Shown piece after piece: positions 1-3,689 of a stretch of DNA of 3,689 nt. The notes beneath the pieces were generated by a model, which was not told the origin of the DNA, made no database searches, and was given only the letters and a program-made list of their open reading frames with translations. Source of the DNA: Escherichia coli (GTDB taxonomy: Bacteria > Pseudomonadota > Gammaproteobacteria > Enterobacterales > Enterobacteriaceae); assembly GCF_003334315.1 (NCBI RefSeq), contig NZ_QOWR01000103.1; one strand, 5' to 3'. The position numbers and the translations under genes are program-made. Position 1 is the stretch's first letter; each line of letters opens with the position of its first letter.

Positions 1-129
1 ATGAGCGGAAAACCAGCGGCGCGTCAGGGAGATATGACTCAGTATGGCGGTCCCATTGTCCAGGGTTCGGCAGGTGTAAGAATTGGCGCGCCCACCGGCG
101 TGGCGTGCTCGGTGTGTCCGGGCGGGATG
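1..129 (+). other. N-terminal PAAR-like motif region (single motif copy plus Cys-x-x-Cys), possible T6SS spike-binding remnant
   Basis: Residues 5-8 are literally P-A-A-R (nt 13-24), followed by QGD...[14 protein letters not shown], which resembles one repeat unit of a PAAR domain. Cys36 and Cys39 (CSVCPGG, nt 106-117) could be metal ligands. Only one motif copy is visible, whereas a full PAAR domain has about three. Confidence 0.45.
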
Positions 130-3100
130 ACTTCGGGCAACCCGGTAAATCCGCTGCTGGGGGCGAAGGTGCTGCCGGGCGAGACGGACCTTGCGCTGCC
201 CGGCCCGCTGCCGTTCATTCTCTCCCGCACCTACAGCAGCTACCGGACCAGGACACCCGCGCCGGTGGGAGTGTTTGGCCCCGGCTGGAAAGCGCCTTCT
301 GATATCCGCTTACAGCTACGCGATGATGCACTGGTACTCAACGACAACGGCGGGCGGAGCATTCACTTTGAGCCGCTGCTGCCGGGGGAGGCGGTGTACA
401 GCCGCAGCGAGTCAATGTGGCTGGTGCGCGGTGGTAAGGCAGCGCAGCCGGACGGCCACACGCTGGCGCGGCTGTGGGGGGCGCTGCCGCCGGATATCCG
501 GTTAAGCCCGCATCTTTACCTGGCGACCAACAGCGCACAGGGGCCGTGGTGGATACTGGGGTGGTCTGAGCGGGTGCCGGGTGCTGAGGACGTACTGCCA
601 GCGCCGCTGCCGCCGTACCGGGTGCTTACCGGGCTGGCAGACCGTTTCGGGCGGACGCTGACGTACCGGCGTGAGGCCGCAGGCGACCTGGCCGGGGAAA
701 TCACCGGCGTGACGGACGGTGCCGGGCGGGAGTTCCGTCTGGTGCTGACCACGCAGGCGCAGCGTGCGGAAGAGGCCCGCACCTCTTCGCTATCTTCTTC
801 TGACAGTTCCCGCCCTCTCTCAGCCTCAGCGTTCCCCGACACACTGCCCGGTACCGAATACGGCCCCGACAGGGGTATCCGCCTTTCGGCAGTGTGGCTG
901 ATGCACGACCCGGCATACCCGGAAAGCCTGCCCGGTGCGCCACTGGCGCGGTACACGTATACGGAAGCCGGTGAACTGCTGGCGGTATATGACCGCAGCA
1001 ATACGCAGGTGCGCGCTTTCACGTATGACGCGCAGCACCCGGGCCGGATGGTGGCGCACCGTTACGCGGGAAGGCCGGAGATGCGCTACCGCTACGACGA
1101 TACGGGGCGGGTGGTGGAGCAACTGAACCCGGCAGGGTTAAGCTACCGCTATCTTTATGAGCAGGACCGCATCACCGTCACCGACAGCCTGAACCGGCGT
1201 GAGGTGCTGCATACAGAAGGCGGGGCCGGGCTGAAACGGGTGGTGAAAAAAGAACTGGCGGACGGCAGCGTCACGCGCAGCGGGTATGACGCGGCAGGAA
1301 GGCTCACGGCGCAGACGGACGCGGCGGGACGGCGGACAGAGTACGGTCTGAATGTGGTGTCCGGCGATATCACGGACATCACCACACCGGACGGGCGGGA
1401 GACGAAATTTTACTATAACGACGGGAACCAGCTGACGGCGGTGGTGTACCCGGACGGGCTGGAGAGCCGCCGGGAATATGATGAACCGGGCAGGCTGGTA
1501 TCGGAGACATCGCGCAGCGGGGAGACAGTACGCTACCGCTACGATGACGCGCACAGTGAGTTACCGGCGACGACAACGGATGCGACGGGCAGCACCCGGC
1601 AGATGACCTGGAGCCGCTACGGGCAGTTGCTGGCGTTCACCGACTGCTCGGGCTACCAGACCCGTTATGAATACGACCGCTTCGGCCAGATGACGGCGGT
1701 CCACCGCGAGGAAGGCATCAGCCTTTACCGCCGCTATGACAACCGTGGCCGGTTAACCTCGGTGAAAGACGCACAGGGCCGTGAAACGCGGTATGAATAC
1801 AACGCCGCAGGCGACCTGACTGCCGTCATTACCCCGGACGGCAACCGGAGCGAGACACAGTACGATGCGTGGGGAAAGGCGGTCAGCACCACGCAGGGCG
1901 GGCTGACGCGCAGTATGGAGTACGATGCTGCCGGACGTGTCATCAGTCTGACTAACGAGAACGGCAGCCACAGCGACTTCAGCTACGATGCGCTGGACCG
2001 GCTGGTACAGCAGGGCGGCTTTGACGGGCGGACGCAACGTTATCATTATGACCTGACCGGAAAACTCACGCAGAGTGAAGATGAGGGGCTTGTCACCCTC
2101 TGGCACTACGATGCGTCGGACCGCATCACGCACCGGACGGTGAACGGCAACCCGGCAGAGCAGTGGCAGTATGACGGCCACGGCTGGCTGAGAGAAATCA
2201 GCCACCTGAGCGAAGGCCACCGTGTCGCTGTCCACTACGGCTACGACGATAAGGGCCGCCTGACGGGCGAACGGCAGACGGTGGAGAACCCGGAGACGGG
2301 GGAACTGCTGTGGCAGCATGAGACGAAACACGCCTACAACGAACAGGGGCTGGCAAACCGCGTCACGCCGGACAGCCTGCCGCCGGTGGAGTGGCTGACG
2401 TATGGCAGCGGTTACCTGGCGGGAATGAAGCTGGGCGGGACGCCGCTGGTCGAGTATACGCGGGACAGGCTGCACCGTGAGACGGTGCGCAGCTTCGGCA
2501 GCATGGCAGGCAGTAATGCCGCATACGAACTGACCAGCACATACACCCCCGCAGGCCAGTTACAGAGCCAGCACCTGAACAGCCTGGTATATGACCGTGA
2601 CTACGGGTGGAGTGACAACGGCGACCTGGTGCGCATCAGCGGCCCGCGACAGACGCGGGAATACGGCTACAGCGCCACGGGCAGGCTGGAGAGTGTGCGC
2701 ACCCTCGCACCAGACCTGGACATCCGCATCCCGTATGCCACGGACCCGGCGGGCAACCGGCTGCCGGACCCGGAGCTGCACCCGGACAGTACACTCACAG
2801 TGTGGCCGGATAACCGCATCGCGGAGGATGCGCACTATGTCTACCGCCACGATGAATACGGCAGGCTGACGGAGAAGACGGACCGCATCCCGGCGGGTGT
2901 GATACGGACGGACGACGAGCGGCCCCACCACTACCACTACGACAGCCAGCACCGCCTGGTGTTCTACACGCGGATACAGCATGGCGAGCCACTGGTCGAG
3001 AGCCGCTACCTCTACGACCCGCTGGGACGGCGAATGGCAAAACGGGTCTGGCGGCGGGAGCGTGACCTGACGGGGTGGATGTCGCTGTCGCGTAAACCGG

Positions 3101-3689
3101 AGGTGACGTGGTATGGCTGGGACGGAGACAGGCTGACGACGGTGCAGACTGACACCACACGTATCCAGACGGTATACGAGCCGGGAAGCTTCACGCCGCT
3201 CATCCGGGTCGAGACAGAGAACGGCGAGCGGGAAAAAGCGCAGCGGCGCAGCCTGGCAGAGACGCTCCAGCAGGAAGGGAGTGAGAACGGCCACGGCGTG
3301 GTGTTCCCGGCTGAACTGGTGCGGCTGCTGGACAGGCTGGAGGAAGAAATCCGGGCAGACCGCGTGAGCAGTGAAAGCCGGGCGTGGCTTGCGCAGTGCG
3401 GGCTGACGGTGGAGCAACTGGCCAGACAGGTGGAGCCGGAATACACACCGGCGCGAAAAGTTCATTTTTACCACTGCGACCACCGGGGCCTGCCGCTGGC
3501 GCTCATCAGCGAAGAAGGCAATACGGTGTGGAGCGCGGAATATGATGAATGGGGCAACCTGCTGAATGAGGAGAACCCGCATCACCTGCACCAGCCATAC
3601 CGTCTGCCGGGGCAGCAGCATGATGAGGAATCAGGGCTGTACTATAACCGTCACCGGTACTACGATCCGTTGCAGGGGCGGTATATTAC
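1..3689 (+). CDS. rhs: Rhs family core protein (RhsA-subfamily-like YD-repeat polymorphic toxin scaffold); 3' end truncated by the window edge, 5' start at nt 1 plausible but upstream not visible
   Basis: Frame 1 is open for all 1229 codons (no TAA/TAG/TGA). It is absent from the ORF track, consistent with having no stop in the window. Translation begins [42 protein letters not shown], carries many xYxYDxxGRL motifs, and ends ...[32 protein letters not shown]...[18 protein letters not shown], matching my recollection of E. coli Rhs core proteins. The paralogue (rhsA/B/C/F) cannot be assigned without alignment. Confidence 0.94.
781..831 (+). other. Serine-rich low-complexity linker ([17 protein letters not shown]) encoded by a pyrimidine-rich tract
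   Basis: Directly seen: + strand reads acctcttcgctatcttcttctgacagttcccgccctctctcagcctcagcg, strongly C/T-biased in an otherwise GC-rich gene. In frame 1 it gives 10 Ser in 17 residues. Confidence 0.7.
949..3138 (+). repeat. YD-repeat array (protein-level tandem repeats forming the Rhs beta-shell)
   Basis: Recurrent xYxYDxxGR(L/V/I) motifs in frame 1, e.g. [10 protein letters not shown] (nt 1084-1113), GYDAAGRL (1282-1305), EYDEPGRL (1474-1497), RYRYDDAHS (1531-1557), [10 protein letters not shown] (1663-1692), RYDNRGRL (1732-1755), EYDAAGRV (1918-1941), HYDLTGKL (2044-2067), GYDDKGRL (2239-2262), RYDEYGRL (2845-2868; the window reads RHDEYGRL), YLYDPLGRR (3007-3033). The motif Tyr residues recur about every 21 codons between nt 1285 and 2244. 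Confidence 0.88.
3460..3689 (+). other. RHS repeat-associated core domain (start of the C-terminal autoproteolysis module), partial
   Basis: Frame-1 translation [76 protein letters not shown] has the hallmark pattern of this domain (D-h-h-G-s...[21 protein letters not shown]). The window ends before the expected DPxGL motif. Confidence 0.8.

Follow-up and report, generated by a model that had tools for sequence, protein, structure and literature searches.

What is a 3,689-nt stretch of Escherichia coli DNA that is markedly richer in G and C than the chromosome of its host, and what do its repeated copies mean for the way such genomes evolve and are assembled? The question is raised by the stretch shown above, from contig NZ_QOWR01000103.1; the whole stretch is referred to here as the window. 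A first-pass annotation had described it as a GC-rich, foreign-looking Rhs core that is likely present in several near-identical copies. Our analysis identifies the window, with a probability of about 0.9, as the conserved core of an Rhs polymorphic-toxin gene that belongs to the RhsD/E subfamily of clade I and occupies the rhsE locus of E. coli.

Frame +1 of the window is open throughout, with an ATG start and 1229 codons uninterrupted by any stop; each of the remaining frames contains 12-50 of them. A megablast search of 5426 complete E. coli genomes identified strain 2017.04.03CC (NZ_AP025205.2) as the best match, with a single mismatch. In this genome, the window corresponds to the first 3689 nt of the 4209-nt coding sequence LPH27_RS11230, which is annotated as 'RHS element core protein'. 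The protein matches the NCBIfam equivalog profile NF041261 (RHS_core) with 2773.7 bits against a cutoff of 2000, residues 1-1258 aligning with positions 1-1261 of the 1261 in the profile; the window supplies residues 1-1229 of this match. The score bears out the earlier assignment to an Rhs core, as do the YD repeats, of which profile TIGR01643 (YD_repeat_2x) recognizes 6 stretches in the protein. The features of the window are as follows.

1-3689, + strand: open reading frame, codons 1-1229 of the 1402-codon RHS element core protein gene; no stops, 1 mismatch to LPH27_RS11230.
7-60, + strand: PAAR-like stretch, weak and partial, residues 3-20 (Pfam PF05488, E 0.28, model positions 52-69 of 70).
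136-369, + strand: DUF6531 domain, residues 46-123 (Pfam PF20148, E 2.9e-18).
958-2700, + strand: YD/RHS repeat array, residues 320-900 (Pfam PF05593, 8 matches with E <= 0.001 and weaker ones).
2923, + strand: private base C (codon CCC, Pro975); A (ACC, Thr) in all other D/E-type copies examined.
3460-3570, + strand: RHS protein motif, residues 1154-1190 (Pfam PF03527, E 2.6e-18).
3541-3689, + strand: initial two-thirds of TIGR03696, the Rhs-associated core domain (residues 1181-1258 in the full protein), cut by the window end.
3640-3668, + strand: hyperconserved core-end motif, placed by its pattern, 21 nt 5' of the window end.

The window is cut 5' of the DPxGL motifs and the toxin tip. In the full coding sequence, the core-end DPxG-(18)-DPxG and PxxxxDPxGL motifs are found 10-95 nt past the window end, and the sequence diverges thereafter. 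No significant PAAR or other recognized N-terminal loading domain was found with Pfam, the 18-residue PAAR-like match being the only trace of one. The C at position 2923 sits inside a run of C's and could be a strain-specific single-nucleotide polymorphism (SNP) or a sequencing error.

The locus is the K-12 rhsE site. Gene order in NZ_AP025205.2 is yncH, vgrG, rhs, dsORF-e4, an IS1 remnant, ISEc5 (ydcC; H-repeat transposase) and pptA. The VgrG gene (TIGR03361, 623 bits) has the same orientation as rhs and lies 66 nt upstream of its ATG; this vgrG-rhs junction is found in 2677 of the 5426 complete genomes. The same chromosomal position (yncG/yncH to pptA, position 6) is annotated in NZ_AP025205.2, K-12, and strains VTB97420v (NZ_CP178690.1) and MEI7BO1-21 (NZ_CM149560.1). 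According to Jackson et al. (2009; PMC2935791), this 'position 6' predates the origin of E. coli, and rhsD, at position 3, is derived from it. The gene shares with the E. coli RhsD-E subfamily described by the Hill laboratory a GC-rich core of ~3.7 kb encoding ~1200 residues, YD repeats, an AT-rich tip and a small downstream open reading frame (ORF). Its 98.0% identity to K-12 rhsD, its ~77% identity to rhsA/B/C and its position at the K-12 rhsE site are further points of likeness. K-12 rhsE itself, however, is a truncated pseudogene without vgrG, whereas the gene examined here is intact, encodes 1402 residues and is preceded by vgrG.

The composition of the window departs from that of its host at every codon position. 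Its GC content is 64.3% over 3689 nt, with each 300-nt segment between 0.61 and 0.71, and GC at the first, second and third codon positions (GC1/GC2/GC3) is 66.4/49.3/77.1%. The flanking host chromosome has 49.4% GC (35 kb, NZ_AP025205.2), and the flanking host genes average 50.0% GC and 53.7% GC3 (sd 9.1, max 67.8; n=25). Host GC1 and GC2 are ~57% and ~41%, and the window is above both. The core thus exceeds the host by 15 GC points overall and by 23 at third positions. When 294 kb of the best-matching genome was sampled, a sample that contains the rhs loci themselves, only 3 of 580 segments of 3689 nt reached >=62% GC, with a maximum of 0.642. Codon use points the same way: CTG (84), GGC (57), ACG (53) and CGG (45) are among the commonest codons, CGG accounts for 38% of Arg codons versus 8% in host genes, and ACG for 54% of Thr codons versus 27%. 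Compared with host genes, synonymous codons are used very differently (summed chi-square 391.7, 41 df); the control, the host gene narZ of similar length, gives 123. At the core/tip junction, GC falls from 0.56 to 0.37 inside 100 nt; the tip (the remainder of the coding sequence) has 41.9% GC and dsORF-e4 has 27.8%. The GC richness and the preference for G/C-ending codons (CGG, ACG, GGC, CTG) that had been read from the letters alone are therefore real, and the comparison proposed with them shows a window that is not host-like (64.3% GC and 77.1% GC3 versus 49-50% and ~54%). Chance composition and a single-copy gene were both considered and are ruled out by the codon test, the host GC comparison and the copy counts that follow.

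Matches to the window are present in 3901 of the 5426 complete E. coli genomes, the median genome having 6 places and the richest 14 (megablast). Of 24,147 matching places in total, all but 19 are chromosomal. The rhs loci of NZ_AP025205.2 were located by synteny, and five full cores were found, all on the same strand.

2336250-2340458: rhsE-locus copy, 99.97% identical to the window (1 mismatch).
3325627-3329907: rhsD, 99.62% identical to the window, full length, no gaps.
3141016-3145209: rhsC, 76.8% identical to the window by blastn and 77.3% by MAFFT, full length.
121211-125344: rhsA, 76.8% by blastn and 77.3% by MAFFT, full length.
289343-293578: rhsB, 76.8% by blastn and 77.3% by MAFFT, full length.

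Between cores, identity is 99.65% for D versus E, 99.81% for A versus B and 98.4% for A versus C, and ~77% across these groups; D and E lie 989 kb apart. The cores therefore fall into two subfamilies, each of near-identical members, rather than into a single near-identical family. The division agrees with the core subfamilies RhsABCF and RhsDE of Wang et al. (1998), as cited in PMC2935791. Counting copies by BLAST, as the first-pass annotation had suggested, thus upholds the multi-copy claim, with five full cores in the best-matching genome rather than in the source assembly. The claim of near identity holds for rhsD (99.6%) and fails for A, B and C (~77%). Orphan core fragments of 82-976 nt lie behind rhsA, rhsC and rhsD of NZ_AP025205.2, and none was found behind its rhsE-locus copy. 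A 95-nt fragment downstream of the rhsD locus (NZ_AP025205.2 3323577-3323671, and K-12 ylbI) matches core nucleotides 1-95 with 79% identity. Unlike the usual 3' orphans, it corresponds to the core 5' end and is a remnant of another rhs start.

The differences between the rhsD and rhsE-locus cores of strain 2017.04.03CC are distributed very unevenly, as a SNP table along window coordinates shows.

1-3515: 0 differences between rhsD and the rhsE-locus copy; both have A at 2923.
3516-3609: cluster of all 13 rhsD versus rhsE-locus differences; the window has the E-type alleles.

Within 3516-3609, rhsD of 2017.04.03CC is D-type and has 10 of 13 alleles in common with K-12 rhsD, from which it differs at 66 sites overall, arranged in blocks. 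The published picture is one in which loci cluster by position (PMC2935791); in contrast, the D and E cores here are identical over 3515 nt and more homogenized. The full D/E pair available for comparison is that of MEI7BO1-21, in which the two cores differ at 136 sites over 1-3500. Because D and E can differ to this extent, identity is not the default state, which argues for conversion. VTB97420v offers a single informative site, 177, at which its D and E copies share C and the two copies of the 2017 lineage share G. Other strains were rejected as D/E pairs: 30EVA2 and AHM9C68I have lost the rhsE-locus copy and have IS1 at the site, and in VTB97420v rhsD is cut by IS3 after 1365 nt. The simplest reading of these patterns is a recent inter-locus gene conversion or re-copying of ~3.5 kb in the 2017.04.03CC/30EVA2 lineage, which would have left the tips in place. 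We put at even odds the specific proposal that the rhsD and rhsE-locus cores, ~1 Mb apart, were homogenized by a ~3.5-kb tract ending ~175 nt before the core/tip junction. Since such a tract ends before the junction, each locus would have retained its own toxin-immunity pair. Mechanistically, long, near-identical repeats on the same strand would exchange homologously, the D and E cores becoming homogenized while each keeps its own 3' end and tip.

The product of the core can be placed by its homologues. PDB sequence matches over the YD-repeat shell include Tse5 (8cp6, 4.5e-115) and Rhs (7q97, 8.7e-74) and range to 1e-46; further solved homologues are Tse15 (8uxt) and Salmonella bongori Rhs (8qjd), and teneurins are more distant. 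The core is predicted to encode an N-terminal region and the YD-repeat shell, which forms a beta-cocoon in solved Rhs structures. By homology, the shell would encapsulate a C-terminal toxin and ride on the VgrG spike of a T6SS (type VI secretion system). The putative toxin tip and the presumed immunity gene would lie just beyond the window, in AT-rich sequence. The likeness to the T6SS Rhs effectors with solved cocoons (Tse5, 7q97, Tse15, 8qjd) consists of YD-shell homology, a vgrG directly upstream and the DPxGL core end. Unlike these effectors, the present protein, known from sequence alone, has no significant PAAR or loading domain, and its tip belongs to no family. Searches with the tip (~140 residues, glycine-rich) returned no Pfam or NCBIfam family, and dsORF-e4 (131 residues) returned no NCBIfam family. 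The N-terminus of dsORF-e4 is signal- or lipoprotein-like (MKKYIFLVLFLLCGC).

Whether the composition is foreign was examined by a cross-species scan for the core-end motif, with one genome per species, which gave at least 120 loci in many genera. Among the matches listed, 37 intact 3-kb cores range in GC from 46% in Shewanella to 70% in Tahibacter, with Halomonas-group and Delftia cores at 63-69%. High GC could be a built-in property of Rhs cores that follows from their amino-acid composition and repeat structure, in which case it would say nothing about foreign ancestry. That GC1 and GC2 of the window (66% and 49%) exceed those of the host (~57% and ~41%) fits this explanation, as does the pattern in Serratia, where the core has 67.7% GC and the tip 46.4% (Jackson et al., PMC2935791). 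Across the 23 cores from other genera with a measured flank among the matches listed, core GC is correlated with that of the local flank (Spearman 0.66, p 6.5e-4) and exceeds it by a mean of 5.1 points, positively in 20 of 23. However, the excess here is +14.9 points, ~3x that mean, and GC3 is 77% versus 54% in the host. GC-rich codons are also not required by the family, because Shewanella cores have 46-48% GC and 41-48% GC3. Polarized substitutions in D/E-type cores, with rhsA/B/C as the outgroup, number 61 GC-to-AT versus 29 AT-to-GC (binomial p ~0.001), which speaks against equilibrium at synonymous sites; the blocks are recombined, the sites are not independent and the outgroup is 23% diverged. 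We therefore regard an intrinsic origin of the high GC as unlikely. The substitution counts imply an equilibrium near that of the host, with 46% GC overall and 52% at third codon positions. This bias may fit the slow decay (amelioration) of an out-of-equilibrium sequence, a fit that is only suggestive; recent polymorphisms are AT-biased in most bacteria. The same counts bear on GC-biased gene conversion among copies as the force that upholds high GC3. Conversion between copies is indicated by the D/E comparison, and multi-copy sequence is where such a bias would act. A 61:29 excess in the opposite direction with an equilibrium near the host nevertheless makes this explanation highly improbable. 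Recent arrival of the core in this genome as a mobile element, on a plasmid, phage or island, would account for its atypical composition, for the IS1 remnant and ISEc5 directly downstream and for its variable presence among strains. Still, it lies at the same chromosomal position in K-12 and all strains inspected, a position that predates the origin of E. coli (Jackson et al., PMC2935791). The closest full-length core from another species among the matches listed, that of Citrobacter amalonaticus, is only ~69.5% identical. Matches were found in 21 of 72,556 plasmid records and in 5 phage records, and those inspected were not genuine carriers but mislabelled chromosomal fragments or contaminants, so plasmid or phage carriage was rejected. 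Recent acquisition is therefore scarcely credible. Together, these data make a foreign or atypical ancestry plausible and do not support recent horizontal acquisition; the foreign look proposed at the outset agrees with the composition of the window, with the direction of substitution and with the comparison across species, and finds no counterpart in a plasmid or phage carrier.

The first-pass annotation had also proposed that recombination with orphan tips could swap toxin modules and that the copies act as substrates for RecA-dependent rearrangement. The rhsD locus of MEI7BO1-21 lacks rhsD-CT and ybbC; its main core continues straight into the sequence that in K-12 forms the orphan ylbH tip and ybbD, and core positions 3504-5252 are 98.9% identical to this K-12 stretch. 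This junction could equally be a recombinational tip swap or the state before tip displacement in the model of Jackson et al. (PMC2935791). In Salmonella Typhimurium, recombination with an orphan rhs-CT has been shown experimentally (Koskiniemi et al. 2014, PMC3967940). There, homology between the core 3' end and the orphan permits a new tip fusion, to which the MEI7BO1-21 junction is comparable. The homology behind E. coli rhsD is shorter, 195 nt at 85.6% versus 522 bp at 95% in Salmonella (PMC3967940), and the locus of the window, unlike the Salmonella one, has no orphan fragment. Orphan-tip exchange may thus be illustrated by a core-to-orphan-tip junction at rhsD of another strain and does not extend to the locus of the window, where there is no orphan tip to exchange. 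The MEI7BO1-21 rhsD-locus gene is flagged as frameshifted by PGAP, and its core has a 9-nt indel relative to the window at position 779, in a Ser-rich stretch. For larger events, the view that the copies act in nature as hot spots of RecA-dependent rearrangement, generating large duplications, deletions and inversions, goes back to a selection in K-12 that yielded an rhsA-rhsB duplication dependent on recA (Lin, Capage and Hill 1984, as cited in PMC2935791). The arrangement of the repeats also favors it, with five cores on one strand and 3515 nt of perfect D/E identity 989 kb apart. Jackson et al., however, report no published natural rhs-mediated rearrangement and term the phenotype artefactual (PMC2935791), and K-12-like neighbors are kept at all five loci of the best-matching genome. 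The events that we did find carry insertion sequences. Strains 30EVA2 and AHM9C68I share an IS1-associated deletion of the yncH end, vgrG, the whole rhs and part of dsORF-e4, with IS1 at the site, which leaves a 210-nt ORF between IS1 and the IS1 remnant. In VTB97420v, rhsD is cut after 1365 nt by IS3 and stands tail-to-tail with a truncated 6-kb T6SS-linked rhs accompanied by vgrG, hcp and a tss cluster, and the proA-prp segment is inverted relative to K-12. The arrangement resembles an inversion mediated by IS3 whose two end points fall within rhs genes; an rhs-mediated event was rejected because the two truncated genes are separated by IS3. Among about six genomes inspected, no gross rearrangement with an rhs-rhs junction was found, the events detected carrying IS1 or IS3. 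A role of the cores as natural hot spots is accordingly improbable, and the 'hot spot' property remains a laboratory observation. What stands of the earlier proposal is the laboratory selection and the presence of long near-identical copies; natural rhs-rhs rearrangement is not supported by the statement of Jackson et al. or by the genomes inspected here.

Several considerations weigh against the account developed so far. The copy number of the source genome is extrapolated from its best match, which differs at one base. The D/E identity could in principle reflect a recent re-duplication instead of conversion, and in these data the two are indistinguishable. Inter-locus recombination of cores has been considered infrequent, if it occurs at all (Jackson et al. 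2009, PMC2935791), and the D/E conversion signal is in mild tension with that statement. T6SS delivery in strain 2017.04.03CC is doubtful because the canonical T6SS-1 site of this genome, the one site surveyed, has no tss genes. In this strain, the vgrG-rhs module of the rhsE locus may thus have been left without its secretion apparatus. The site itself (NZ_AP025205.2 3588893-3593000, between yafV and ykfM/dnaQ) contains ISAs1 and IS1; VTB97420v has a full tss cluster, which ends at ykfM.

The identity of the window as a repeated rhsE-locus core has direct consequences for assemblies. Homology between the D and E copies starts exactly at window base 1, with unrelated sequences upstream, and the first D/E mismatch past the window is at 3690, so that the window is the maximal D/E repeat. 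As D/E homology begins and stops precisely where the window does, the window may itself be a contig bounded by the repeat. Such a repeat structure would make assemblers break, collapse or mis-circularize the locus. In the cross-species scan, the hyperconserved motif lies <=150 nt from a contig end in 17 of 41 occurrences (whole-contig loci in many species, among the matches listed). A contig end cuts 61 of 120 motif loci, and 27 lie on contigs shorter than 5 kb, again among the matches listed, at least 120 in all. Plasmid records are affected as well. The PLSDB 'plasmids' CP048292.1 and NZ_OY757120.1 are the chromosomal rhsE locus. Among the PLSDB entries of this kind, a 7010-bp linear 'plasmid' is the rhsE locus from core position 95 to ydcC (93.9% identity, 53 gap openings), and a replicon-less 7307-bp 'circular plasmid' combines a core with this tip, dsORF-e4 and the flank on the ydcC side. 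What is recorded as a 'Klebsiella oxytoca plasmid' is the E. coli ybbA-rhsD-allantoin chromosomal segment. The assembly hazard predicted for the window is borne out by these chromosomal segments deposited as plasmids and by draft contigs that break near its 3' end. Record ends of the Campylobacter phages A18a (MG065686.1 1-195) and A11a (MG065691.1 173925-174114) are 82.5-83.4% identical to window 3492-3689; these ~190-nt ends are unexpected there and may be chimeric or contaminant. Short motif-bearing contigs were also seen in metagenome-assembled genomes of Bacillota, Sporosarcina and Collinsella and in assemblies of Terrisporobacter and Nostoc. Three of these five contigs match the 3' portion of the window at 81-90% identity, and two have the motif only and low coverage (cov 0.79 and 1.85). 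They probably represent enterobacterial contamination or mis-binning.

The finding is correct in substance and already known, and its interest is practical more than scientific. Descriptions of multi-copy Rhs cores that are rich in GC and carry exchangeable, AT-rich tips go back to the 1980s and 1990s, with a review in 2009. On the practical side, a near-perfect repeat of 3.5-3.7 kb is not spanned by short reads, so contigs break at its edges and copies can be collapsed or mis-joined. Fragments of the locus are consequently deposited as 'plasmids' and 'phages', and SNPs called inside the repeat have no locus assignment without long reads. The only mildly new element is the clean rhsD/rhsE conversion signature, a modest refinement of toxin-scaffold evolution. 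If such conversion recurs across E. coli, the cores of a genome would undergo concerted evolution, whereas the tips would remain tied to their loci. The published view of infrequent recombination would then be revised, and trees of rhs cores would not track locus orthology.

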